In this document: positions 1,104-14,726 of the stretch, one piece after another
Numbering within the stretch: the stretch's first letter is position 1
How the letters are laid out: the number at the start of each line of letters is the position of its first letter
DNA from: an uncultured virus (IMG/VR IMGVR_UViG_3300042308_001600)
Lineage: Duplodnaviria > Heunggongvirae > Uroviricota > Caudoviricetes
Reading direction: 5' to 3' (one strand)
IMG/VR virus record: IMGVR_UViG_3300042308_001600
Location: 1 to 64,000 of that record
DNA length: 64,000 nt
Position numbers and translations under genes: made by a program
The notes under the pieces: generated by a model
The model's input: the letters and a program-made list of their open reading frames with translations, nothing else
Databases searched by the model: none
What the model was told of the DNA's origin: nothing

Positions 1104-3100
1104 GAGGCAGGAGTGAGAGGGGTTATGGAGGGCTTGGCGGGGGCGGCGTGCTCGAATGCGACCTGCGGACGCCCCGGGCCAATTGGCATCTTGATCTTCG
1201 GCTTTGCGAGCCCACCCTGAGGTTCAAGGCCGGTGGGGGTGTGCATGATCGCACTGGCGAACTTGGAACACTGGAGCGCGAAGTGGAGGGCACCAGATTT
1301 GACTGGCGGCAGGACTGCTCGATAAGCATCAATGAGCGCATTTGTTGTCCTGTACTGCTCAGGTTTCACTTCTGGGAATTGCTTCTTCAGGTGATCCCAA
1401 TCACTCCCTGGCCAGTTGTTGAGGAGACGGAATTCCGTGTTACCTTGGTTCCTCAATATGTTCGCCGCATCCTGCTGTCCTTGTGTGGGAGGCATAGGGC
1501 CAGACTCCCAACCGAGTGTACCGCTGTCACTTGGTTTTAGCTTGGGAGCTGAAGCATTTGGGGGCGGCGTAGCGGCTTCCCATCCGAGTGAATCATCTAC
1601 CTTCGGTGTTGCTGGAGCAGCAGGCTTTGGAGTGACAACGGCTGGGGGTGATGCAGGCTTGGCCGCAGCTACTGGTGATGCAGGCTTGGCCGGAAGCTCC
1701 CGAATCAGCGGTCCCGACGTGTCCAGGTTAAGCAAGGAATTCGGATCATCCAAAGGAGAAACAGTATTACTCTGTTTCTTCAGAAGCTTCGGCTCTACTG
1801 GATTCGCTGCCCAGTCCTTGGTGGCCGCCGCGTCTGATTCAAATCCTGTCAGCTTTCTCCCTGAATGCGAAGGCTGTCCATGGACGTTCGCACCAAACGG
1901 GTCGCCTTCCCGCATCGCCGCTAATGCTGGATCATAACTACCTGGCCTGTTTGATGAAATAAATGTATTCCGAGATGGATCAAAGGTACTAGGAACCTTG
2001 AACTGCGGATTCACAGGCATTGACGTATAGGGCTCTGCGGCGGGCTGGCCTCCAGGTTTGCCTCCAGGTTTGCCTCCAGCCAACAACTGCTGTGGAGCAG
2101 GCACACGCGCGGGTAGGTTCAAAGAACCAAGATCATTGATGTACTGTTGGCGTCCTTCCGAGATGCCGATCGCGGGGTTCACGCGATCTGGATCCGTGAG
2201 GGACTGATAAGGCGAATCTCCAATACGGGAACCCGCCATGGTTTGGTTACGCAGGTTTGGCACATCCGGATAGGCCGGTCCACGTGGGTCTGCCATTGCA
2301 GGTCCTTTGAACAAGTACCCAGGGTTGGCCTTGTCGACCTCCGCGACAGCTTGTGTCTTGGCCGCCTCCTGCTGCTTCGCCACGATCGGTTCCAGATGGT
2401 CACGGAAGGCATTGGGGCCTGTGTAGGTCTTACCATCAATGACGGTCTTGCGGTCTGGGGCCGTGGCCCAGTTTGAGGGATTGTTGAATGTCACACTCCC
2501 AGTTCCGTACTGGGAGTTCAGGACACGCTTGTTGGGATCCCCACCTTTACGAAGGGAACTCTCTGGATCAATAGTGGCGCTGACATGTGTCCCTCCAGGA
2601 TTCCCTGGTGTCGGGCTGTACAGATCCGCACTGCCCATTTGCTGAACTGGTGTGCCCACTGTTCCTGGCGCACGGTCCGTGTAGGCCCGCCCACCCCAGC
2701 CTTTGTAAAAATTCGCGAGATCTGGTCGCGACATGGCCTTGAAATCCGCAGGGTCGCCAACCGGAACTGCCAGACCTCCGTTGCCCGGCTCCCAAGTGGA
2801 GACGTTGGGACGTGTGCCAGCATTACCTGCAAAAGCGGCGTTGCCAACCGGAGCCGAAGTGGGAGCACCGTTGTTTGGTGCGGTGGTAGTTGGCGTGGTG
2901 GTTGGCGTGGTGGTTGCGGTGGTAGTTGGCGTGGTGGTTGTCGTTGTCGTCGGCGCAGGAGCGGGCAGTCTTGTGACGATCTCATTGGGATCATCCGTGC
3001 CTGGTGTCACCACAGGACTTGGCATTCCCTTAGCCGGATCATAGCTTGCCGTGTTGTCGACAGTGGCAAGCTTCAGTAATGTACGTGGTAAAAAGGTCAT
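1100..3100 (-). CDS. Pro/Thr-rich low-complexity protein with KxA motifs, putative virion internal protein
   Basis: 666 aa; N-terminal LLKLA, Thr tract, GGKP and LGWE repeats, C-terminal KFA. Confidence 0.75.
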   Translation of the reverse strand: MTFLPRTLLKLATVDNTASYDPAKGMPSPVVTPGTDDPNEIVTRLPAPAPTTTTTTTPTTTATTTPTTTPTTTAPNNGAPTSAPVGNAAFAGNAGTRPNVSTWEPGNGGLAVPVGDPADFKAMSRPDLANFYKGWGGRAYTDRAPGTVGTPVQQMGSADLYSPTPGNPGGTHVSATIDPESSLRKGGDPNKRVLNSQYGTGSVTFNNPSNWATAPDRKTVIDGKTYTGPNAFRDHLEPIVAKQQEAAKTQAVAEVDKANPGYLFKGPAMADPRGPAYPDVPNLRNQTMAGSRIGDSPYQSLTDPDRVNPAIGISEGRQQYINDLGSLNLPARVPAPQQLLAGGKPGGKPGGQPAAEPYTSMPVNPQFKVPSTFDPSRNTFISSNRPGSYDPALAAMREGDPFGANVHGQPSHSGRKLTGFESDAAATKDWAANPVEPKLLKKQSNTVSPLDDPNSLLNLDTSGPLIRELPAKPASPVAAAKPASPPAVVTPKPAAPATPKVDDSLGWEAATPPPNASAPKLKPSDSGTLGWESGPMPPTQGQQDAANILRNQGNTEFRLLNNWPGSDWDHLKKQFPEVKPEQYRTTNALIDAYRAVLPPVKSGALHFALQCSKFASAIMHTPTGLEPQGGLAKPKIKMPIGPGRPQVAFEHAAPAKPSITPLTPAS

Positions 3101-3109
3101 GGGGTCAGG

Positions 3110-6100
3110 CTAGTCCGGAATTTCAATGTCGTCCTCCAACTTTACAGCGCCGCTCTGCATACCCGCAAGCGCTTCCTGTCCTGAAGCGAAGCTGTGCAGC
3201 TTCGTAGGCGGACGTTTGTTGGCATTCCAGATGCCTAAAATTTGCTCATGCTTAGGCACCGGGACCACGTCGTCCTGGTTCTTGATGGAGAACAGCATCT
3301 TGCTGGCCATCAACTTCTCCTTGGTCTCCTTGATGGATTCTGGCAGGACCGGCAGGGAGACGTTGATCTGGTCCCCGTCGAAGTCGGCGTTCTGACCGGC
3401 CGTGATATAGGGGTTGATGGCAATGTGCGGACCGTCGTGGATCCGGGCATACTGCCCGACGGCGTTGAACTTGTGCCAGGCTGGAGCGCGGGAAAGGATG
3501 AAGGGTGTGTCCTTCAGCTCAAGCTCCAGGGTGCGGCTGGCAAAGGCGTCACGGTCCTTCACGGCTTTGATGGTCTGGGCGGGACTCATGCCCATCATGG
3601 CCAGCCGCCGCTGTACCTTGGAACCGGCGAGCGTCCAGGCCATCTCACGGGGGATCGAGACTTCATCGAGGCCCAGGTCTGGATCGACCGTGATGACACT
3701 GCGGCCCACGTTGTCGATGGGCTTGGAAAGGAGCCGGCGTTGAACGAAGGAGTTACCACTGACGACGGCGGCACCGTTGCGGCGCACCACAAGCAGCCCG
3801 TTAGGTACAGCGACACAATAAATGTGACCGTTGTACTGCACATCCTGAACTGTCCCGTTCGACTCGGTTTGAACGAACCAGCGCCCAATGAGCACACCAT
3901 TGTACTTCTCAGCATGGTGCTCTGGATACAGATGCGGGTGCTCTTTTCTACGGCGGATACAAATACCAAGTTTGAAGCCTACTTCCATCAGGTCATCGAA
4001 CAGCTTTGGACTTGTGGTAATGAAAGCATGATGTGAATCTGTAAGAGCATCACGGAACCGGTAGTTGTCGGACGCGTTTGCACGCTTCTGCCATGGAACG
4101 CGCTTAGCGCCATCCCCCTTCAGGTAGGTGTCGAACAGCAACCCCAACAGGGTCTGATTCCAATCACGTGCTAGAGCAGGTATGCGCTTGAAATTGGAAC
4201 CTTTGCCGCAATGCTGTTCCAACCATGCAACCAACGGTCTACATCCCTTGATGCTCCAACCGTAACCGCTGAAGCGAGGCTCCTCCCGGTGCATGTTCAC
4301 TTTGGACACCTCTTGTACATTGCTGATGTCTCGGAACAAAGCGTCTAGTTCCAAGCAGTAATCGGGGTTTGCTTCGGTCTGCCAGATTGTAGCGATCGTA
4401 CCACATTCGTGTGTGCTTCCTTCTGAAATGTACCAACCGATAAAACGTGCAAACAGTTCAGCGGGCCAGTGGCGTGCACACTCTGGCAGTTCGACCGAGC
4501 CCTCCCAACCACCTGCGCCCACCATAGCGAAGTGACGTACTTTGTGCGCGACCAACTCGTCGGCCCGCATCGCATACCAACCAGTGCGCAAATTGTCGTC
4601 CGTCATCTTATTCTTCTTGTCGCGCTTTTTGGTCCACATCCGGTGATTGGGTGTGACCAAAAGGTCCATGCGCTTGCCTGTACGCCCACCAACTACGAAC
4701 CGCTTCATGGTACCGCTGTATTCTGAATCGATGTACTCCGTAGGGGTCTGCCATTCGAATGCCAGGGTCTTGGGATTTATGGTGGCCACCTGCGCCCCAC
4801 GCTCCAGTTCAGAGAACTTCACCCACCCTTGACCCCGCGTCAGGATTTCTGTGTCTGCAGAGTAGCAGTGCTTTGGCCCTTCGTTGAGGATCTGGTCCAA
4901 GTAGCCCGAGGGTCCACGCTCCTTGAGCTTCGGGGACACGGGGTCTCCGTAACCGTACAGGGCCCTCGTGGCATTCAGGAGATTCATGCGCGTCAGGGCT
5001 GCGCCGCCTTCCCCCAGGGTCGAGAGCGTCTCGTCATGGATAGCCCGGTGCTTGAAGAGGTCCTGGTACAGTTCATTGGCGTCACCGGGAATGTAGGTGG
5101 TGCCCAGGAACGAGAAGGGCCTGAAGGCCGGTGGCAGTACTGGCACCCGCTTGATCATGAGCTCCTCGGGCTTGATGTCATTACGGCGCAGACCCTCAAG
5201 GGCATTGAGCATCTTGACCCCACGGTCACGCTTGGTGATCTTCCCGGAGGCAATGTCAGCACGGGCTTGCTTCTCGAGGTCATCGAGGTTCAGGGCCTTG
5301 AGGGCTTCCAGGATTCCATGCGGGCCAGTACGGCCTGCGATCTGTACTGAGGCGGACTTCTCTTGGGCTTGGTCCCAGGAAGCCTGCTTCTTACGTTCAG
5401 CATCGACATCGAAGCTGTGACCGCAGTCACGACACTCCGCGTTCGAGTGGGTCTTGAAGAACTCGAAGTCCTTGGGCTTGCCACCGCATTCGGGACATTG
5501 ACCCCGACGTACCCACAGGTTCCGGAGCTTGTCCCCGGCGGCCTGCTTCTCCTCTCCTCGCCCTGGAACGGAAACGTTCTCCGGCGAGGTGGAGGCCTTC
5601 TTGGCCCGCCGTGCAGCCAGGATAGCCCGCTTCTTCTCCCGCTGCTGGTACAGGATCTCCTTCATGGATTCCCCGCCGAAGCCCTGGTAGTTCTCAATTC
5701 TCTCGTCGGACATCTCCGGGTCATCCACGATCCCTTGGCAGTTGGGACACAGCTGGTCAGCGTCCATGGGCTCAATGCCTTCCCGCTCGGCCTGTTCGAA
5801 GTCAGGACGCGGGTAGCCCTTCTCGGTAAACTTGTGGTCACAGTGTGGGCAGTGGTCATCCTGAACTTCCACCATCCTGGTCTTCCGAACCATCTCGGCC
5901 GCGACCTTGGTCAGAAGCTCGCCCTTGTCTGGCACGACCCCGATGGCCCGGTCATCGTAGAAGCGGGTTATCGTTGGATCCTTGATGTTCGTGATCTTCA
6001 TCTTCTCTAACCCGTGATCATCGAGCCACTTCCGCACCGTGCTGTGCATCTTGGGATCCTTGGAACTGGCGCGGGCCGTGAAGCACAAGGTGCGCTTCCC

Positions 6101-6241
6101 ATCCCGGATGGCCTTCAGGGCCAGGTCCAAGATTGCCTCCACGGGTTCCCCTACCGAGTACGGATTGAAGGGCTCCTGGCGTAGGGCCAGTGTTCCATCA
6201 AGGTCAAAGGCGATTACATCTGGTCTAGTCTTGTCGGCCAT
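3110..6241 (-). CDS. rpoC: DNA-directed RNA polymerase beta-prime catalytic fragment with intein, fused to N-terminal HAD phosphatase and Zn-ribbons
   Basis: VPVLPPAFRP, RRLLSKPIDNVGRSVI, RAPAWHK and NADFDGD motifs; N-terminal FDLDGT...FTAR...K...DD HAD motifs; CxxC pairs. Confidence 0.92.
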   Translation of the reverse strand: MADKTRPDVIAFDLDGTLALRQEPFNPYSVGEPVEAILDLALKAIRDGKRTLCFTARASSKDPKMHSTVRKWLDDHGLEKMKITNIKDPTITRFYDDRAIGVVPDKGELLTKVAAEMVRKTRMVEVQDDHCPHCDHKFTEKGYPRPDFEQAEREGIEPMDADQLCPNCQGIVDDPEMSDERIENYQGFGGESMKEILYQQREKKRAILAARRAKKASTSPENVSVPGRGEEKQAAGDKLRNLWVRRGQCPECGGKPKDFEFFKTHSNAECRDCGHSFDVDAERKKQASWDQAQEKSASVQIAGRTGPHGILEALKALNLDDLEKQARADIASGKITKRDRGVKMLNALEGLRRNDIKPEELMIKRVPVLPPAFRPFSFLGTTYIPGDANELYQDLFKHRAIHDETLSTLGEGGAALTRMNLLNATRALYGYGDPVSPKLKERGPSGYLDQILNEGPKHCYSADTEILTRGQGWVKFSELERGAQVATINPKTLAFEWQTPTEYIDSEYSGTMKRFVVGGRTGKRMDLLVTPNHRMWTKKRDKKNKMTDDNLRTGWYAMRADELVAHKVRHFAMVGAGGWEGSVELPECARHWPAELFARFIGWYISEGSTHECGTIATIWQTEANPDYCLELDALFRDISNVQEVSKVNMHREEPRFSGYGWSIKGCRPLVAWLEQHCGKGSNFKRIPALARDWNQTLLGLLFDTYLKGDGAKRVPWQKRANASDNYRFRDALTDSHHAFITTSPKLFDDLMEVGFKLGICIRRRKEHPHLYPEHHAEKYNGVLIGRWFVQTESNGTVQDVQYNGHIYCVAVPNGLLVVRRNGAAVVSGNSFVQRRLLSKPIDNVGRSVITVDPDLGLDEVSIPREMAWTLAGSKVQRRLAMMGMSPAQTIKAVKDRDAFASRTLELELKDTPFILSRAPAWHKFNAVGQYARIHDGPHIAINPYITAGQNADFDGDQINVSLPVLPESIKETKEKLMASKMLFSIKNQDDVVPVPKHEQILGIWNANKRPPTKLHSFASGQEALAGMQSGAVKLEDDIEIPD
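3752..4867 (-). mobile_element. intein (372 aa) with LAGLIDADG-type homing endonuclease
   Basis: starts CYSADTEILT, block B VTPNHRMW, endonuclease-like motifs FIGWYISEG and YLKGDG, ends YCVAVPNG...VVSGN followed by Ser; removal restores GPKH-SFVQRRLLSK. Confidence 0.9.
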
Positions 6242-6277: not shown

Positions 6278-7285
6278 TTACTTCATGGGAGCAGCAGCGC
6301 CATGGGGCGTACGGGCGGGTAACAACTGTTTCAATTTTTCCACCCCACCACGCAAGTACTCCTGAATTCTAAACCATTCACTACCTAATCTTGACTCAAA
6401 ACCCTGCCGCCCCATAAACTGCTCCATCCCCTGCGGGATACGTGAGGCCCACGATCCCTTGTACACAGGGGACGTGATATTACGCAGTATGTGCTGCCAT
6501 TGTTTATTTGCCGGTACGCGAAGCAGTTTACCGTCATGTACAAATGCCCAATTGCGGAAATTGTTGATACCCGATTGTAGTTTGGTCTCATACCAAGGTA
6601 CCCAGCTGTCAGCCGGCTCCAGTCCCTTGCCGGTCACCAACTCTCTTGGGTCAGCTAGCTTGAGTTGGTGGCGCGCCCATAAATTCTTGTTCGTGCGGGC
6701 TAAGCCGAATGCATCGCCACGCAAATTCGGTGGTTGACGCAGCGCGGAAACAACACTGTCCCAAGTACGCCCCATTTGCTTGGTGACGTCCATGTCCTGT
6801 AAAAAGTCAGCGCTGTAGCGATTAAGTGGGCTTGCCTGGTATTCAGCAACCAACGCGGGAGCTGAACGATTCGGTCCGTACTTGGCGGCCAGAGCAGGGG
6901 ACGGAGTTCCATGGACCCAGCTACCTGCTTCAATGTTGGGAGTTAAGGTTCTCATTCCACGAAACAGTGAACCCGGAGTTTGCTTATTCTGAAGCATGTT
7001 TGCGCCGAGTGTCTCTAGCGGTGTCACGTCGTCCAATTTGTTTACCTGCTTCAGCAGCCCTGACATCTCTTGCGCTGGTGCGTAAGGGTTCGAGCTCATA
7101 TGTGACTTGGCTATTTGCAGCTGAGTCAGGCGGGTCGGATCTCCCCACTTGGGTGGATGTATATTAGACGTTATTGCCGGTGTTGGTGGGCGGCGCATGA
7201 AAGCCGCCAACGCCTTTGCAGTACGCCACCTAGCCAATCCCTGCTTCACCATGTATGAACTGACTTGGATGTGCGTCGGTTTCAT
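6278..7285 (-). CDS. putative virion protein with possible ADP-ribosyltransferase-like domain
   Basis: N-terminal HIQVSSYMVKQG motif; LFRG...HGTPS..AAKYG...YE arrangement resembles the ART fold. Confidence 0.6.
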   Translation of the reverse strand: MKPTHIQVSSYMVKQGLARWRTAKALAAFMRRPPTPAITSNIHPPKWGDPTRLTQLQIAKSHMSSNPYAPAQEMSGLLKQVNKLDDVTPLETLGANMLQNKQTPGSLFRGMRTLTPNIEAGSWVHGTPSPALAAKYGPNRSAPALVAEYQASPLNRYSADFLQDMDVTKQMGRTWDSVVSALRQPPNLRGDAFGLARTNKNLWARHQLKLADPRELVTGKGLEPADSWVPWYETKLQSGINNFRNWAFVHDGKLLRVPANKQWQHILRNITSPVYKGSWASRIPQGMEQFMGRQGFESRLGSEWFRIQEYLRGGVEKLKQLLPARTPHGAAAPMK

Positions 7286-7288
7286 AAA

Positions 7289-7933
7289 TTAGCCTCGTGC
7301 TGCCGCGATCCCGGCAGGAGCTTTGATCTTGAAGTCAGGCGCTGTTGGCTGGGTCGGCTGCACAGCGGTCGGTGCAGCGGGTGGTTGGAACATCTTAGGC
7401 GCTTGCTTCAAATGCCCTCCGAGTCCCGGCTGCTGTCCAGCTACGGACTTTGCTGCTCCGAGGGTCGCGCGCTTGAGCAAGTACGAGCTGACGCGGATGT
7501 GGGAAGCTTGCTTGTGTCCGAAGACCTGATTGATCTGCGCTTGGTACGGGACCAACATTGTTGACAGATCGACCGCGCGCGACTGTAACCACTGCCCGAA
7601 TGATGGTAGACCCTGCCGCACCTCCGCAGGAACCGGCACGGGTGGGAGTTCCTGTTTGGGAGGTGCCCAACCTGCCGGAGCTGGTTGTCCTGAGCGTGTC
7701 AGGATGGGTGATGCAAGCGTAGGGGCTTGCGGGGTTGGCGGAACCGGCAACGCGTACTGCTTACCAGGCGGCAAGGCTGCTACGGTTTTGTCCGTCTTGG
7801 ATGTTGGAGGGATCGGAACGGGCAGGTCGTACTGTTTACCTTCCGGTGGGGGAGGGGTCGCGCCTGCGCGTTTGACGTGAGAGAGAAGTTGAAACGGCGT
7901 TGCCATCCTCAACTGTCGCAACAAGCGGGACAC
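7289..7933 (-). CDS. Pro-rich KxA-motif protein
   Basis: VKRA, KQASHIRVSSYLLKRA; two GKQYxLPVP repeats. Confidence 0.7.
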   Translation of the reverse strand: MSRLLRQLRMATPFQLLSHVKRAGATPPPPEGKQYDLPVPIPPTSKTDKTVAALPPGKQYALPVPPTPQAPTLASPILTRSGQPAPAGWAPPKQELPPVPVPAEVRQGLPSFGQWLQSRAVDLSTMLVPYQAQINQVFGHKQASHIRVSSYLLKRATLGAAKSVAGQQPGLGGHLKQAPKMFQPPAAPTAVQPTQPTAPDFKIKAPAGIAAARG

Positions 7934-7981
7934 TCTGCAAGTTTTGTCAGAAACCGTGCGGAAGTGTTTTTGCCTCTGGCT

Positions 7982-8599
7982 TCATCGTGTCTTAGGTTGG
8001 TTGAGCTGGTCCGTCAGGCTCTTGAGCTTTAGACCCAAACCACCTGCCGTTGCCAGTCCGCCGACAATAGGGGCTGCAGTCAGGAGTTGGTACGGCAGGG
8101 CCGCCGCGCGGGCACCCAACCGTTTGAAGTCTCGTGCATAGGACGGTGCGGTCTCCCACAACTTCAATGCTCCTCTGACAGGAGCCATCAGGCCTTTGGT
8201 CTCTCCAGTGCGGGCACCGAACTCAGCCAGGATGCTGCGTAGGCCTGACTTGAAGCTATTACCCGGCTGAGATATGCCGGCCTGCACAGTTCTGTCCAGC
8301 CAGGTGTGTGGTGCCTTGATTTGGGCCATGTGGGTAAGCTCGTGCCGCAGTGATTGTCGTGCTACAGTCGGCGAAAGCCCACCGCGCACTAGCAGTAGGT
8401 CATCCTTGGGACGGTACTGGCCCCAAGTGTCAGGACCTGGAAACGAGCTGGCGCGAGCATTGGGGATCACGATCGTCTTGCGGCGCGCAGCCATCAAGGC
8501 AGGGTAGCGTTCGAAGGACCCCAACCCCTTCGCGGCAGGCGCTGCACGCCCAAGCAACTTGCCAAGCAACTGTACTGGTCCTGCCTGTTTGTACATCAT
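7982..8599 (-). CDS. HExxH zincin-like metallopeptidase-domain protein
   Basis: MMYKQAG start; GQY...LRHELTH...AE motif; C-terminal hydrophobic Gly-rich helix. Confidence 0.7.
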   Translation of the reverse strand: MMYKQAGPVQLLGKLLGRAAPAAKGLGSFERYPALMAARRKTIVIPNARASSFPGPDTWGQYRPKDDLLLVRGGLSPTVARQSLRHELTHMAQIKAPHTWLDRTVQAGISQPGNSFKSGLRSILAEFGARTGETKGLMAPVRGALKLWETAPSYARDFKRLGARAAALPYQLLTAAPIVGGLATAGGLGLKLKSLTDQLNQPKTR

Positions 8600-8916
8600 G
8601 GGGGTGTAGTTGAACTTGCGCTTGGTGTGACGGTCACGTGCAGTCCATCGATCTTGCTGACCAGTTGTGTAATTCGCTCCTGCTGGATATCGAGTCGCTT
8701 CACGAGGTTCTCATCCGCGAGCCAGGCTGCATCCTTGTTGGTCTTCAGGGCAGCCTCAATAGCCGAGATCCTGACTTCGATCATGACCTTTGCTTCGACC
8801 CTACTCTCGATACGGTGCTCCAACCACGTGTACATGGTCAGGCTGCCGGTTAACAACCCCATGACCGTGCCACCGATCATGGCAATCCAGCTGGGAGGTT
8901 TGGAGGCGTCAGGCAT
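8596..8916 (-). CDS. single-TM coiled-coil protein (lysis accessory-like)
   Basis: N-terminal TM (WIAMIGG...YTWL) followed by heptad repeats. Confidence 0.65.
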   Translation of the reverse strand: MPDASKPPSWIAMIGGTVMGLLTGSLTMYTWLEHRIESRVEAKVMIEVRISAIEAALKTNKDAAWLADENLVKRLDIQQERITQLVSKIDGLHVTVTPSASSTTPP

Positions 8917-8921
8917 ACTGG

Positions 8922-8950
8922 AATGTCCCGGCCCTGCGAGTACTAGTCAA
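8922..8950 (-). promoter_or_regulatory. sigma70-like promoter, probably leaderless
   Basis: TTGACT-17 bp-GACATT ending 5 nt before ATG 8916. Confidence 0.5.
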
Positions 8951-10014
8951 TACCAAGCTGCTTTCTTGACCGCACCAGGAACCGGTTTGGGTTCAGGATC
9001 CTTGGCTGGCTTCGCCGGGGGTTTGGCTGGAGCCTGCTTGGGCAGAGCCCTCAGGAACTTCGGGTTCAGGATCACCGGCCCCACGGGAGGCTTGGTGGAG
9101 GACACGGCAGCCACGGAAGGTACTGCTGCCGCACGTTTGAGAATATGGGTGCTGACCTGGATGTGGGCCACCTTGTTGCGCGGGTCGTCCGGATGTGGGT
9201 TGGCTGCTGCAAACGTTGGGTTGTCTTTCCGGTACTTGTCATTGATGGCAGTAGCGCGCGCCATCACGTCCTCGGGTTTCATGGAAGTAGCACTGCCGTT
9301 GAAGCCAGTTCCGGCTGTCAAATTCCCAACAGCGTTGTCCATCTGTTGTTGGTCCATCTGCTGGGGAGCTGTTGGACCTGCGACGAGGCCGCGATCCTGC
9401 AGGACACCAGGCCGAGTTCGTTCCGCGATCCCTTCCGGGCTGTCTGCTGGAAATGCCGTTTTGGCGTCCGGTCCTGGGGCGCCCGGTATCGTGGAAAACT
9501 CGTGACCAGAAGGAACCTGGGAGGGTGGAGGTGTTCCACCCGGAGCCGGAGGAGATGCGGCAGGCGGGACAGATGAGGTGTCACCCCCCAAGGCGGGGGC
9601 TGGTGGCGGCATTGTGGTCTTGGTTGGGTCGCCCAAAGCAGCAGGATATGAAGGTGACGGTGTACCTCCAGAGTCTCCAGCTCCCAGGGTTGACGGCGGG
9701 AGTGAACCCACAGGTGCCGCCGGCGGTGGTGTGCTGGTTGGAGTTCCACCGCCCCACGGGTCAGGAAGTGGAGCACCAGCACCTAATGGGGGAGGGGGTA
9801 AAGGGGGCAACGCACCCAAAGGAGCCTGTGGTGCCGGAGGTGGAGCCGAACCCAAAGGAGTCGCTGCTGGGGGTTTACTTGCACCCGGTGTCGCCGCTGG
9901 TGTCGTCGGCGCCGTCGCTGGATTTGAAGCCGCTGGGGCTGCCGCCGCAGTGGGGGCCTTGAAGGCACTCTCACCAACGCCAGCTTGTTTGTGGAACCAG
10001 GGGGCTAGACTCAT
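8947..10014 (-). CDS. Pro/Ala/Gly-rich KxA-motif protein
   Basis: FHKQAG at N-terminus, KVAHIQVSTHILKRA, C-terminal KKAAWY. Confidence 0.72.
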   Translation of the reverse strand: MSLAPWFHKQAGVGESAFKAPTAAAAPAASNPATAPTTPAATPGASKPPAATPLGSAPPPAPQAPLGALPPLPPPPLGAGAPLPDPWGGGTPTSTPPPAAPVGSLPPSTLGAGDSGGTPSPSYPAALGDPTKTTMPPPAPALGGDTSSVPPAASPPAPGGTPPPSQVPSGHEFSTIPGAPGPDAKTAFPADSPEGIAERTRPGVLQDRGLVAGPTAPQQMDQQQMDNAVGNLTAGTGFNGSATSMKPEDVMARATAINDKYRKDNPTFAAANPHPDDPRNKVAHIQVSTHILKRAAAVPSVAAVSSTKPPVGPVILNPKFLRALPKQAPAKPPAKPAKDPEPKPVPGAVKKAAWY

Positions 10015-10020
10015 ATGCGA

Positions 10021-10293
10021 CTACGTTGCCATTACTGTGCTGGGTACGTCAACCGGAGTTCCCACATAACCCAGGACAGCAACCCAGGGTCTGGTTGGAT
10101 CATCGAGCCCCTGCCGTTCAAATGCCTCCCGACAATCCTGCGCGTTGTGGAGCATGTAGGTGGCCTGCGCTTCCTCACAGTAATGCTGTAGCGGAAAGCA
10201 CCAGCACCCACCATGGGCCCAGTGGAAAGGTTCAGCCCCACCGACTGGTATGCGGTGCATCGCAGGAGATGTGGGTGATTGGCTGGCTTCCAT
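10021..10293 (-). CDS. small His/Cys-rich hypothetical protein
   Basis: H...CWCxP...HNAxDxRE pattern; start refined to ATG 10293 to avoid overlap with the PAS gene. Confidence 0.55.
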   Translation of the reverse strand: MEASQSPTSPAMHRIPVGGAEPFHWAHGGCWCFPLQHYCEEAQATYMLHNAQDCREAFERQGLDDPTRPWVAVLGYVGTPVDVPSTVMAT

Positions 10294-10336
10294 GTTGGAT
10301 AGGGTCACCATGCCTCCCTGTGTGCGCAACCAGAAT

Positions 10337-10942
10337 TCAGGGCGCCGACCCAGCCAGTTCAGTCGCGTGCGCCATGTGGTTCTGCCACGCTTCAAAGCAG
10401 TGGCTGATATCCAGCTCACCGGGCTTGTCGGCGGCAGAGAACCGTATACACAATCCGGTCATGTATCTGCCGCCCCCGTAGACCGCTCCACCTGCTCTCA
10501 GGAAGTACACGATGCCGTCCGTGCCCACCACCCGGAACACCGCCTGGTAAGAGCTTCGCGTCATGATCGCCCGCTGTAACGCTGCCATAACCATCGGCAC
10601 ATCCTCCTTGTACAGAGTCGAGACAAACTTGGCGGCCGGCTCGTCTGTCGCAGATCCGCGCCATTCCCAAATGCCGTCCACGTTCTCCCAGCCTGCCTTG
10701 CTGCAATGGAACAACTCGAACATGCGGTCATCCCATCTGAGGATGTTTTTTTCAATGTCCCAATACCACTGTCCCGCGCCTGCCCCACGCACAGCAGTTC
10801 TGAACTGCGCCGCGAGATGTTCTGAACGCTGCTGTTCGTAGAAGAACAGAATGGCCGCGCCCAGTGCCACAAATATCAGAGTGGCGTGAAGCAGTGACGC
10901 AAGGGAGTGCCGGCGGTTTGACATGCGATCGAGAATGCTCAT
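10337..10942 (-). CDS. membrane-anchored PAS-domain protein with no output domain
   Basis: N-terminal TM helix, then GQWYWD...WDDRMFELF...EDV...YQAVFRVV..DG.V.FL..G PAS/PAC signature. Confidence 0.82.
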   Translation of the reverse strand: MSILDRMSNRRHSLASLLHATLIFVALGAAILFFYEQQRSEHLAAQFRTAVRGAGAGQWYWDIEKNILRWDDRMFELFHCSKAGWENVDGIWEWRGSATDEPAAKFVSTLYKEDVPMVMAALQRAIMTRSSYQAVFRVVGTDGIVYFLRAGGAVYGGGRYMTGLCIRFSAADKPGELDISHCFEAWQNHMAHATELAGSAP

Positions 10943-11274
10943 TGGCCTTTTTTGGAGAGGAATTTGTTAACGAAGCTGGAGACGGCCATGCTGATCATGG
11001 CCAGGAGATCGAAGGCCTTGTAGCCCGCGAAGATCCCGATCCCACACAGAAAATAATTGAAGCCGTATTGTTCCACAAGCACCAATACGACACCACCAGC
11101 AGCGAGGCCGCCTGAAAGTAGGTAGGCCATCACGACGCGCGGTGTCAGAGGGCTCTCAGATCCCAGGAGAGCCGCCATAGCCGAGAGCGCCCCGAACGTC
11201 ATTGCGACGGCCAGGTAACCAAGATGCTGCGCATCAATATCAGTAGCAGAAGGAACAGAAGGGGGTAGGTCCAT
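10939..11274 (-). CDS. putative holin (three TM helices)
   Basis: 111 aa, three hydrophobic helices, GIFAGY motif, basic C-terminal tail (KFLSKK). Confidence 0.7.
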   Translation of the reverse strand: MDLPPSVPSATDIDAQHLGYLAVAMTFGALSAMAALLGSESPLTPRVVMAYLLSGGLAAGGVVLVLVEQYGFNYFLCGIGIFAGYKAFDLLAMISMAVSSFVNKFLSKKGQ

Positions 11275-11281
11275 GATGAGT

Positions 11282-11311
11282 ACTGTTACGCAGAGATGGT
11301 GAGCGGGTCAA
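11282..11311 (-). promoter_or_regulatory. sigma70-like promoter for holin-PAS unit
   Basis: TTGACC-18 bp-AACAGT ending 7 nt before ATG. Confidence 0.4.
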
Positions 11312-11334
11312 TGTTTGGCGTGCAACATCGTACT

Positions 11335-12024
11335 CTACCATTCCCGTACAGCTTGCTGGGCAGAGCGGAACAGATCCCCGTAGGCGCTAGGTGGCGCGTG
11401 TGGGATATTAGGCAGTACACTTCGGACACCCTGGACAGCAGGTGCTACAGCAGGTGCATAGGCGTGCCGAAGCCAAGTCCCTGGGCCCGTTGCCGCTGGA
11501 GCGCGACCAAGATTGTTCCACCAGTCAGCCACCCCGTTCCGACCAGCAATGTAAGTAGCGTTGCCGAGCAGCGCACGCTGCCCAGCTGGAACTGTTTCGG
11601 GGAGACCCATGATGGCTGTCCTGAGTGTGGTCCAGATTGGGGACTCGGCCAGGTCCTGTGTGTACTGTTTCAACGGTTGAAGTTTCTCATGCGGTGGGAG
11701 CAATTGGTTGGCATTCAGGGCCAAGTCCTTGACAGCTTCACGACCCTGCACAACACTAGCACCCAGACCATAGACGCCCGCACCTTGTGCTATCCGCTTC
11801 GGTACGTTCCACCAACCCTTGACTTGCGGGTTAAAACCGAGCTTCAGTACACGACGCGCGGCAGTACCGATCGAAGGTGCGAAGGTTTCACCTGCCGGGA
11901 CTCCTGCCCCGAAGCGAGCGCCTTGCTGGAGCGTCTTACCTGTTTGGGTCAAGACCTTCGAGACTCCATTTAGTGCCTTACCTAGAAGAGCTGTTGAGAC
12001 CTTGATGTGTGAGACTTTGCTCAT
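11335..12024 (-). CDS. Gly/Ala-rich protein with HIKVST motif
   Basis: start refined to ATG 12024 (ATGA overlap); MSKVSHIKVSTALLGKA. Confidence 0.7.
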   Translation of the reverse strand: MSKVSHIKVSTALLGKALNGVSKVLTQTGKTLQQGARFGAGVPAGETFAPSIGTAARRVLKLGFNPQVKGWWNVPKRIAQGAGVYGLGASVVQGREAVKDLALNANQLLPPHEKLQPLKQYTQDLAESPIWTTLRTAIMGLPETVPAGQRALLGNATYIAGRNGVADWWNNLGRAPAATGPGTWLRHAYAPAVAPAVQGVRSVLPNIPHAPPSAYGDLFRSAQQAVREW

Positions 12025-14726
12025 GGCGCCAGTTTCGGTATCCATTTATTGATCGCAGCGGCGTTCAAAGCATCTTCGATGGCGGTGTCGGCACCGTTAC
12101 CGCTCAGCATCCGCCAGTAGGTCCTCAAACCATCTGATAGCGGCACGGTGCCAATGGCACGCCCCATTGGGGAAGCATTCCAGCCCTGGCGTGGTGCGTC
12201 GGCGGCAGCCAGGACACCAAGCAACCCACCTGCTACCCCACCCCAACCAACTCCAGCACCAACAGAAGGTCGACGTTTCTTATCGCGCACACCGTGCCCG
12301 CGCAGCATCTGGATCAATCCACCAGCGGCTCCACCAAGTGCGGCACCGCCAAGCGGCATCGCAACGGCACGTTCGACTGTGGGAACAGCCCATGCTGCAT
12401 GCACAGCCGCTCTAGGATCTGAGCTTTGCGAAAGTACAGCAAGTTCCTTGAGAGCCGCCACAGTATCTGGTGTGGCGGCTTCGGAGTTTACGCCGAACAG
12501 TTTCAGAGCGTCTGGTAATGAAGTCTCCAGATTGGCCTGCTTGGTCACCTTGTTGTACAGATCTGCTGCCGTACCTTTTGCTGTTTGCCAACCACCCTGG
12601 AGACGGCGAAGCGTATCCGGGAGAGTGTTCTGGTCGGCCGATCCGAGTCCTGCACCTGCAGCGCCGCCGAGCAGTGTGAGCAGGATACGATTGCGCTTCT
12701 GTCTTTTGGCCTCCTCGGCAGAGACCCGCTTCTCGTCCTCGAAGTACTGGCCTACCATATTGCCCAGGAATGCACCACCAATGCCCCCAACATACGGGCG
12801 GCCTCCAGCAATCAACTTAGAGCCTGAGTCCATCAGCTTGCCGCCCAGCTCCTTGGAAGAATTCTCCAACTTCTCGAACGGCTCCTTGAAGTTCTTGGCA
12901 ATACTGTTCTCAGCCTTGTCCATCTTGGAATCGAGCTTGGTCGCGGTGCTGGTGAGTTTGCCTGTACCGGCTCGCAGGTTGTCAAGAGTACCAAACAGTT
13001 TATCACCACCAAGCAGCAGGGATGTCTTGCCGATGAGGCCTGTACTGGCACCCATTAAGGCCTTCGGGTTGTACCCAATGTTCCGGAGACCAGTAGCAGG
13101 ATCCGTGAACACCTTTTTGAGCATACGTTGCCGCGCGATTGGGTTGCCTGCCAACAGACCTAAGGCCGTATTGGCAATCAGGTTGTTCTTCTGCATGTCC
13201 GGTCCCATGTCCGTGAAACTGTTTTCAGCGAGACCAAGCCCCGCACCAGCTCCACCACCGATCAGCGTCTGTGCTACCTGATTACCAACACCCCCCTGAA
13301 ACGCGCCAGGAATAGGACCAGTGCCGATCATCCGCCGAACGTCAGCCAGATTCACGGCATCACGGATGCGAGGGAACTCAGCCATGAGCTCCGGGTGCTG
13401 CAGGGCAACGCGCTCGTACTCCCCTGGTCGCAGGTTGCCTCCGCCAGCTAGGAAGCTTCGGAGCTTCTCCGCGGCCGGCGCTGCAGTAGCCCCCTCAGTC
13501 GCACCGACCGCACCTGGTGTGCGGCTGAACATGCCCTTGAGAGCAGGAAGGACCCCCTTGAGATTGATGGCTTGCTTGGTCCAGGGGGCGGGTGTGAGGC
13601 TAGTGTGCATGATGGAAATATCTGAGCTTGGTAGAATGTTGACCAGCGAATTTGTGGCCTGCTTGTGGAAATCCTGGAACTGCTGCCCGGCCAGTGGCTT
13701 GGTCATGTCCCCTTTCTTTAGCCATGACTTGAACTGGGGTAGCGTCATGGGTGTGATGTCCCGGAAGCCGGTCCAGCCTTCCGAGTAGTTCTTGATGTAC
13801 AGCTCCTTCGCTTCAGCAACAGTACGGCAGCCTACGACGCACTTGTGTTCATCGAAGGTCTTGGTCTTCTGCTTGTTCTGGTCCACCACAAACACGATCT
13901 CGCTCTCGGGATGTGGACCCATGAAGACATCCATCTGGTCACCGGGTTCTGCGCTGGTGGTGCCCTTGATGTACCCGTAGGCATTCTTGAGCTTCACGGA
14001 CCACTCCGTCCCATCCTTATCGACCCCACGCCGCACTGCACCAGGGGCAGACTCGATCGTGATACCGAGACCCTTCCAGGAGAAGTGACCCTTCTGGTAC
14101 TGACCGTGCTCGATGGCCTTCAGGTCAGGGATTGTGACCTGCTTGTACGCAGCTGCGATACGGCTCCGAAGATCCTGGTCGTTGCTGGCATCCTTGTGCA
14201 TCTCCCGAAACATGGTCGACAGTGCTTTACCACCCAGCGTGGCCACCGCGATGGGGGCAGTCCGGAGTGCACTGTTCCAGCGGTGAGGATCCTGGTCCCG
14301 GTGCCACTGCGAAGGTTTGAAATTGGGACCGAACCCACGGGTCAAGAGGCGTCCTAGTGCTTCAGCACCCAGACCTGTCCCGGTCCCGACTAGCCCACCG
14401 GCTGCCGAGAGCTGTGCCAGCCTACCAATGTCGGCATTATTCCGGTACATCTTGGGAGCCATGATGGCAGCCAGCACCCACGGCACACTCAAACCGAGCC
14501 CACCACCTAGCATGGCAGATGTACTGAAAGGTTGGTCCTGGTAGTGCCGCACCCTTGCTTCATCCACCAAAGCCTCCCGGTGCCTCTTGGATTCAGGACG
14601 GGCCGTCGCGGGGGCCTTCTCGAGCGGAGCAGGGTCCACGGCATCCTGGATCTTGCCTGCCGCCCGTTCGAGAACCGGGAGGGCACTCGAGGACTTGACG
14701 ATGGGTGGGGCGAGCAGGGACAACAT
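12021..14726 (-). CDS. KxA-punctuated polyprotein with inorganic-pyrophosphatase-like (InPase) domain and glycine-zipper segments
   Basis: KGH...ITIE..G..R.G...W...YGYI.GT....GD.MDVF...VVDQ...FDEHK...G...A...Y..NY..GW signature at ~13666-14187; several GGxxGxxxG helices. Confidence 0.8.
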   Translation of the reverse strand: MLSLLAPPIVKSSSALPVLERAAGKIQDAVDPAPLEKAPATARPESKRHREALVDEARVRHYQDQPFSTSAMLGGGLGLSVPWVLAAIMAPKMYRNNADIGRLAQLSAAGGLVGTGTGLGAEALGRLLTRGFGPNFKPSQWHRDQDPHRWNSALRTAPIAVATLGGKALSTMFREMHKDASNDQDLRSRIAAAYKQVTIPDLKAIEHGQYQKGHFSWKGLGITIESAPGAVRRGVDKDGTEWSVKLKNAYGYIKGTTSAEPGDQMDVFMGPHPESEIVFVVDQNKQKTKTFDEHKCVVGCRTVAEAKELYIKNYSEGWTGFRDITPMTLPQFKSWLKKGDMTKPLAGQQFQDFHKQATNSLVNILPSSDISIMHTSLTPAPWTKQAINLKGVLPALKGMFSRTPGAVGATEGATAAPAAEKLRSFLAGGGNLRPGEYERVALQHPELMAEFPRIRDAVNLADVRRMIGTGPIPGAFQGGVGNQVAQTLIGGGAGAGLGLAENSFTDMGPDMQKNNLIANTALGLLAGNPIARQRMLKKVFTDPATGLRNIGYNPKALMGASTGLIGKTSLLLGGDKLFGTLDNLRAGTGKLTSTATKLDSKMDKAENSIAKNFKEPFEKLENSSKELGGKLMDSGSKLIAGGRPYVGGIGGAFLGNMVGQYFEDEKRVSAEEAKRQKRNRILLTLLGGAAGAGLGSADQNTLPDTLRRLQGGWQTAKGTAADLYNKVTKQANLETSLPDALKLFGVNSEAATPDTVAALKELAVLSQSSDPRAAVHAAWAVPTVERAVAMPLGGAALGGAAGGLIQMLRGHGVRDKKRRPSVGAGVGWGGVAGGLLGVLAAADAPRQGWNASPMGRAIGTVPLSDGLRTYWRMLSGNGADTAIEDALNAAAINKWIPKLAP

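Follow-up and report, generated by a model that had tools for sequence, protein, structure and literature searches.

Lysis time sets burst size, and in the cases studied it is fixed by the holin sequence, by the antiholin ratio or, in T4, by superinfection. Phage P2 carries the holin gpY, the endolysin K and a separate membrane gene for the presumed regulator LysA, whose record annotation reads 'affects timing of lysis'. LysA was called an antiholin in an account that also describes mycobacteriophage LysF1a/b as separate membrane regulators of holins (PMC13056207), and T4 RI was described as a further regulator of this kind (PMC11413866). As described there, LysF1a (two TM helices) and LysF1b (one TM helix) are adjacent, lysis is well timed only with both of them, the partner acts as more than an antiholin, and a single-pass partner can be an activator (PMC13056207).

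Lysis inhibition in T4 involves the holin T, the periplasmic antiholin RI and the cytoplasmic antiholin RIII. T spans the membrane once and bears a soluble domain itself, and its periplasmic domain reportedly has a GAF-like fold. According to the published description of this system, the timing of the holin responds to a signal through a soluble domain attached to a membrane helix (PMC11413866). VqmA of vibriophage VP882, which combines PAS with a helix-turn-helix, was described as a phage protein whose PAS domain detects a host molecule and directs lysis (PMC8284805).

The pair of genes analysed here encodes a holin-like protein and, directly downstream, a protein with one membrane helix and one PAS domain (TM-PAS). 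As in P2, a separate membrane gene is the presumed regulator and the holin-like protein aligns to gpY; but the partner is unrelated to LysA, consists of one helix plus a PAS domain, and the endolysin is not adjacent in most loci. LysA was the one known antiholin compared for homology, and by hhalign none was found for the TM-PAS family (0.8%) or for the holin family (0.2%). By description, the pair resembles the T4 system in having a soluble domain on a membrane helix, whereas a three-helix holin with a separate PAS partner differs from T. The LysF1 proteins, also compared by description, belong to a Gram-positive-type host, differ in helix counts, and have no PAS domain in the description available. 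VqmA is described as a soluble transcription factor on the lysis-lysogeny switch, whereas TM-PAS lacks a DNA-binding domain, and its target would be the holin in the membrane. Among the papers listed, judged by title and start of abstract in a collection with few subscription papers, none dealt with a holin that has a PAS partner. The two-gene unit is real, conserved and apparently unpublished, and its theme is a holin plus a regulator.

The gene pair and its genome

The window, that is, the whole stretch of 64 kb that was analysed, is the first part of a 121-kb virus contig. The 111-aa holin-like protein and the 201-aa TM-PAS protein matched a record of 200,255 bases (G001, 98% complete) at 100%. 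The source genome is that of a large, ~200-kb phage with its own multi-subunit RNA polymerase (Table 1). The polymerase gene is beta-prime-like, and weak matches to N-terminal HAD-like, zinc-ribbon-like and intein-like Hint stretches were seen in it.

Table 1. Features of the window around the holin/TM-PAS pair
Feature	Position	Strand	Remarks
RNA polymerase gene	3110-6241	-	PF00623
Protein with one weak membrane helix and a coiled coil, 106 aa	8596..8916	-	no family
Small His/Cys-rich ORF, 103 aa	10021..10332	-	starts 4 nt after PAS gene
TM-PAS gene, 201 aa	10337..10942	-	short basic N-tail, membrane helix, PAS_3, short variable tail
PAS_3 domain, residues about 52-167	10442..10789	-	fold search, alignment, model
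TM-PAS membrane helix, residues 14-34	10841..10903	-	conserved polar pattern
ATGA overlap, holin stop / PAS-gene start	10939..10942	-	sequence
Holin-like gene, 111 aa, three membrane helices	10939..11274	-	remote relative of P2 gpY, holin superfamily III
Sigma-70-like promoter candidate	11283..11311	-	TTGACC 11311-11306, 17 nt, TAACAG 11288-11283

The pair lies on the main coding strand amid proline- and alanine-rich genes without known family. Near the starts of several unrelated neighbours within 6278-14726, K-x-A motifs and a short H-I-x-V-S motif recur. Directly upstream of the pair region, a gene on the minus strand (12021-14726) encodes a 901-aa protein with an inorganic pyrophosphatase domain (PF18823, E 3e-46); relatives of this protein flank the pair in the loci L007, L008 and L009.

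The presence of lipoprotein-type signals in the window phage and in related ones suggests that the host has an outer membrane. The annotated phage collection gave no match for the L004 PAS protein or for the window holin, so that neither a cultured phage nor a host was found. The genome collection gave one match, a contig from a binned metagenome genome that matched L010 and offered little information on the host.

Assignment of the holin-like protein

The initial annotation had described a holin-like gene with three TM helices, and the 111-aa open reading frame was found as described, with helices starting near residues 21, 47 and 76 in the hydropathy scan. The match of the protein to PF04550 (E 0.0017, 19.2 bits) was under the Pfam gathering threshold of 25 bits, and that to phrog_175 (E 0.01) was also below the cut-off. 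Because the match of TM-PAS to PAS_3 was likewise below its cut-off, further tests were needed for both proteins.

By hhalign, the holin family profile A5 aligned with P2 gpY at 88.9% (E 2.4e-6, 69 columns, 29% identity). On this profile gpY scored 19.2 bits, which was reached by 0/1000 global and 0/1000 local shuffles; in the control with profile A7, its score was reached by 0/1000 global and 2/1000 local shuffles. Taken over all three profiles, gpY stood above 1000/1000 global and 998-1000/1000 local shuffles. Eight of ten close holin members matched PF04550 at E<=1. Among 50 holin representatives, PF04550 was touched by 12 and the LydA family PF16083 by 4 at E<=0.05, none passed the cut-off (top PF04550 score 22.9 bits), and the remaining ones showed no match or matched scattered membrane families. 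The Atlas neighbours of the protein were superfamily III holin clusters with scores of 0.89-0.91, and the best 10 matches having a family all belonged to this same clan. An AlphaFold2 model was obtained with a pLDDT of 84.6; the fold search with it returned generic helical bundles (best Z 7.4) and nothing specific.

The protein has an acidic N-terminus, a basic first loop and a basic C-tail. In 40 holin sequences, the mean K+R counts were 1.9 in loop 1, 0.4 in loop 2 and 5.1 in the C-tail, and the predicted arrangement fits a class I-type holin with the N-terminus out and the C-terminus in. Remote homology to gpY supports, at the level of sequence comparison, the function assigned initially. 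Since all family matches stayed under the Pfam threshold, we take the protein, which presumably forms holes, as a member of a distant gpY-like holin subfamily rather than a formal member of PF04550.

Seven close relatives were found, and clustering at 50% gave 51 representatives of 84-185 aa, none of which was fused to another domain. Other holins were looked for in the same genome. The window and the fetched parts of G001, with ~1.3 kb outside this coverage, contained 33 short ORFs with a hydrophobic stretch. Sixteen of these, plus two added by hand, made up the 18 membrane-protein candidates scanned against PHROGs, the other 17 being mostly on the opposite strand or in doubtful frames. A holin match was obtained for the gene of the pair only, and no LydA-type holin was found elsewhere in the genome.

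Structure and conservation of the TM-PAS protein

The second gene had initially been read as encoding one TM helix and a single PAS domain with no output, which agreed with our results. The window protein matched PAS_3 with E 5e-4 and 20.7 bits against the Pfam cut-off of 25.6. Relatives were above the cut-off (e.g. E 1.2e-11), and five of six further scanned relatives passed it. In the AlphaFold2 model (pLDDT 83.7), residues 3-53 form one helix, in which the membrane segment continues into a signalling helix. Foldseek gave 131 PDB matches at E<=0.001, the best solved match being the PAS domain of a sensor kinase (3mr0_A, E 3e-8), and the predicted PAS fold was confirmed by the model and this search together.

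The similarity extended beyond the PAS domain. In MASE1-/DUF4118-type kinases, PAS_3 comes after the last membrane helix and before the kinase. TM-PAS residues 1-173 superposed on the last helix, the signalling helix and the first PAS_3 domain of these sensor histidine kinases, with TM by query of 0.62-0.70. Among the 10 matches listed in the Atlas structure search, 9 aligned from residue 1-5 to about residue 173, and they were mostly membrane sensor kinases. Judged from the model, TM-PAS looks like a detached piece of such a kinase that comprises its last membrane helix, the signalling helix and the first PAS domain. In contrast to the kinases, it has no other membrane helices and no kinase; no output domain (kinase, cyclase or DNA-binding) was found, the chain ends ~35 residues past the PAS core, and no HisKA domain was found in the 200-kb record. 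The D-I/V-T motif links a PAS domain to its output coil in sensor proteins, and it was absent from the end of the domain in all 23 TM-PAS sequences.

Searches for relatives, which covered proteins of 94-359 residues, gave 12 other proteins that share 51-78% identity with TM-PAS, and the fetched loci added more distant ones at 24-46%. The residues whose conservation is specific to the family lie in and beside the membrane helix: Arg11 was found in 23/23 sequences, His, Asn, Lys or Arg at position 19 in 23/23, and Glu36 in 21/23. This polar pattern is a candidate holin-binding face. In six of six pairwise comparisons dN was well below dS for the holin and TM-PAS genes, and both genes are under purifying selection.

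The invariant residues of the PAS domain itself look like general PAS_3 consensus positions on our reading of the alignment, and therefore no ligand could be named. PAS sensors of the LOV (flavin) type carry an N-C-R motif with the adduct-forming cysteine, and this motif was present in 0/23 sequences. In heme PAS sensors of the FixL type, the proximal histidine in the F helix is conserved; no histidine was invariant in the PAS domain across the 23 aligned sequences. The window clade has an extra Trp-rich hairpin in its PAS domain at residues 85-94.

Linkage of the two genes

The holin subfamily was found in 13 loci other than the window, two of them viral, ten metagenomic and one from the genome collection. 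Conservation of the holin-PAS adjacency had been set as a test in the initial annotation, and TM-PAS was directly downstream of the holin in 13 of the 13 loci. Three locus pairs are near-duplicates (L004/L011, L010/L026 and L015/L016), which leaves about 10 distinct cases. The flanks of the 13 loci fell into five groups without common genes, with a GC content of 44-59%; L010 was placed in the flank group of the window by a single 32-residue match only. A reverse search with the PAS alignment led to the same two viral records and to no PAS without a holin, and the locus scan with the L016 PAS protein gave no match. Five database matches of the holin and of the PAS protein also agreed in the length of their longest contig, which is circumstantial. 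These linkage scans cover the closer holin subfamily only, at an identity of at least 39%, and stop short of the 20 most distant representatives. A match to L028 in the single-protein scan was spurious, being N-terminal, and was left out of all counts.

The ATGA-type overlap reported for the window was also found, with four bases common to both genes, and we infer translational coupling from it. The spacing at the junction in the 13 loci was -4 nt in six, -1 in two, -8 in two, -11 in one and +6 in two. The identity matrices of the holin and PAS proteins were correlated (Spearman 0.72, 0/5000 permutations), which shows shared descent only and was not used as a sign of co-evolution. Complex prediction for the holin with TM-PAS residues 1-172 gave 0.08 and 0.05 against a mark of 0.32; with controls not folded, these values count neither way.

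Eight relatives of the window phage were found via the RNA polymerase (24-51% identity), of which three are complete. The window holin family was absent from all eight, and a PAS match was obtained in one (G006). The pair is therefore optional in the wider clade.

Lysis genes and promoter candidate

In L003, L004 and L011, which represent one lineage, a tail fibre gene, an amidase endolysin gene (PF01510, E 8e-9 in L003 and 5e-8 in L004), the holin gene and the TM-PAS gene follow each other in this order, and the holin is thus in the position expected for a holin. These were the three of 13 loci with an endolysin adjoining the pair; none was seen in the other 10, several of which are short and in which selected ORFs were scanned. 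The endolysin candidate of the window phage, with peptidoglycan-binding and CHAP domains, is located ~22 kb from the pair (G001 156074-156934, equal to L021 16074-16934). It has small non-structural genes around it, and no holin-like gene adjoins it. Near the tail-fibre genes of G001, a lipoprotein-type signal followed by a helical region was noticed at L021 10211-10615; it has no family and is a possible spanin component.

The PAS match in G006 (complete, 185.7 kb; without the window holin family) proved to be a divergent, stand-alone PAS_3 gene, the first in a full lysis cassette (L043 9971-13160). It aligned by hhalign at 94%, with a Pfam E of 0.0014, and showed no clear membrane helix. It is followed by genes for a single-pass coiled-coil protein (with a 14-nt overlap), a lipoprotein, two membrane proteins, an amidase endolysin and a single-pass protein. 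Thus, a PAS gene beside lysis genes recurs with other partners.

A TM-coiled-coil gene close to the pair had been pointed out in the initial annotation. This gene exists (8596-8916), but its link to the pair found no support. The protein had no relative in the flanks of the 13 loci or in four other phage records, and no similarity to the single-TM coiled-coil protein of the G006 cassette; with no relatives beside the other pairs, its membership in the module is unsupported.

The small His/Cys-rich ORF behind the TM-PAS gene is possibly co-transcribed and is outside the conserved pair, as its relative was found behind the PAS gene in only one of the 13 loci (L008 1657-1971, 58% over 76 residues). 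Its product is possibly metal-binding and matched no Pfam family. In L016, the PAS gene is followed (6922-7113) by a gene for a 63-aa protein that has a signal-like start, contains a metallothionein-like cysteine run and is also without a Pfam family. In L010 and L026, a secreted-type metallopeptidase and a lipoprotein are encoded behind the pair; the signal-bearing astacin/M10-like peptidase of L010 (2062-3141) overlaps the end of the PAS gene, and the lipoprotein-type ORF (2873-3115) overlaps the peptidase frame.

The pair had also been credited with its own promoter candidate. A consensus scan gave 0 sites there, but the TTGAC/TA spacing was kept in three of the four clade loci: TTGAC-18-TA had almost the same position in the window, in L007 and in L008, with unrelated spacer sequences, and was absent in L009. 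In shuffles of each 60-nt leader the frequency of this arrangement was 0.0008-0.002, and both strands of the 121-kb contig contained only 12 such sites with spacers of 16-18. Because the candidate ends 8 nt before the holin start codon, the transcript, if the promoter is real, would have a very short leader or be leaderless. In L012, the pair is on the strand opposite to all its neighbours and is preceded by an A+T-rich leader. The unit looks self-contained from this orientation and the promoter candidate, which would explain its spread. Early expression would be another possible consequence of a host-type promoter; a lysis holin would then need a tight inhibitor, or the role would be other than lysis.

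A proposed role in lysis timing, and alternative readings

As the pair travels together through unrelated phages, the second protein probably helps to set the time of the burst. Our reading, which we hold with evenly balanced confidence, is that of a holin with a co-translated lysis-timing partner whose PAS domain is cytoplasmic. Together, the two genes would make up a lysis-control unit that is portable between phages. The gpY-related class I holin would gather in the inner membrane and finally form holes that release the endolysin, and TM-PAS, coupled through the overlap, would be made alongside it at a fixed ratio. TM-PAS itself would be a single-pass membrane partner cut from a bacterial sensor kinase with the kinase gone, as its modelled fold suggests. 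The most likely arrangement is that the polar, conserved membrane helix of TM-PAS contacts the holin and either blocks triggering, as an antiholin, or helps triggering, as a co-holin. The PAS domain, joined by one continuous helix, may set the strength of this grip via dimerisation or via a small molecule that reports the state of the host.

The initial annotation had proposed a signal-responsive lysis-timing module. Lysis timing is a reasonable inference from the holin homology and the kept adjacency, whereas the signal-responsive part goes beyond what was seen: the LOV motif was absent from every sequence, no pocket residue specific to the family could be named, and the charge rules disagree on the side of the membrane. 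That TM-PAS is a ligand-gated antiholin, in which a small-molecule or redox cue from the host cytoplasm acts via the rigid helix on the holin with no transcriptional step, is put forward as a tentative and somewhat doubtful extension. If it were true, a lytic phage would advance or delay bursting according to the physiological state of its host, and the unrelated PAS gene of the G006 cassette would add a second case, independent of the first. Through a PAS domain coupled to a holin, a phage would have a post-translational means of sensing the host interior and of choosing when to lyse the cell. At 312 residues the pair is small, and it is self-contained and present in several phage lineages; a tunable holin would be a useful tool. 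Even if the PAS domain senses nothing, the pair would still combine a holin subfamily and a type of partner that are both undescribed.

The host-type promoter candidate and the L012 orientation speak against lysis, since they resemble an added accessory cassette and not a late lysis operon. The pair might accordingly be an accessory membrane module not tied to terminal lysis, in which a holin-fold protein is re-used and TM-PAS is its on/off partner, for example in superinfection block, cell killing on entry of a rival phage, lowering of the membrane potential or export of phage proteins. The very short leader behind the promoter candidate, the insertion in L012 against the direction of the neighbours, the 10 of 13 loci with no endolysin seen beside the pair (several short, selected ORFs scanned), its absence from all three complete relatives, and the metallopeptidase and lipoprotein after it in L010 and L026 are consistent with such a use. 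However, the pair lies directly behind endolysin and tail genes in one lineage, no other holin match was obtained among the 18 membrane candidates of the genome, and PAS recurs in the G006 lysis cassette. We regard an accessory role as rather unlikely.

The initial annotation had named a decoy as its alternative. TM-PAS would then dimerise with the helix-PAS segment of host sensor kinases or diguanylate cyclases and jam their signalling, with the holin-like gene as companion or escort. The superposition of residues 1-173 on the kinase segment agrees with this, and any kinase partner would be the host's because the phage genome has no HisKA; PAS domains have been described as able to drive dimerisation (PMC8284805). 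But a decoy leaves unexplained both the constant coupling to the holin (13/13) and why the family-specific conserved residues are those of the membrane helix, and TM-PAS no longer has the terminal coupling motif. It was considered quite improbable.

The side of the membrane on which the PAS domain lies separates our reading from that of a lysis regulator whose periplasmic PAS domain senses conditions outside the inner membrane, such as material of a superinfecting phage, like T/RI of T4. The charge rules disagree. By K+R counts, the PAS side would be inside in 13 of the 23 sequences, with 5 against and 5 ties, whereas by net charge the N side was more positive in 19 of 23, which together with the invariant Arg before the helix is the pattern of an N-in signal anchor and favours PAS outside. 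The T4 system offers a precedent for the periplasmic arrangement in its published description (PMC11413866). Against it, the structural relatives hold PAS_3 between the last membrane helix and the kinase, and therefore in the cytoplasm, and TM-PAS has no conserved cysteine pair. Charge alone does not settle the topology, and homology to the donor kinases favours a PAS domain facing the cytoplasm; a periplasmic sensor was held to be decidedly improbable.

The tight overlap, and the sum of three helices and one, would also suit a single four-helix membrane sensor, produced where ribosomes shift frame in a programmed way or read through at the junction, or else a gene that was split recently, but this is very improbable, as the junctions occupy all three relative frames across loci, which led us to reject a programmed frameshift, and none of the 51 holin-family representatives, searched with no length limit, is longer than 185 aa.

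By a viral fold search, small PAS-fold proteins (155-245 aa) were also found in other phages, including the Cellulophaga phages phi18:3 and phi19:1.
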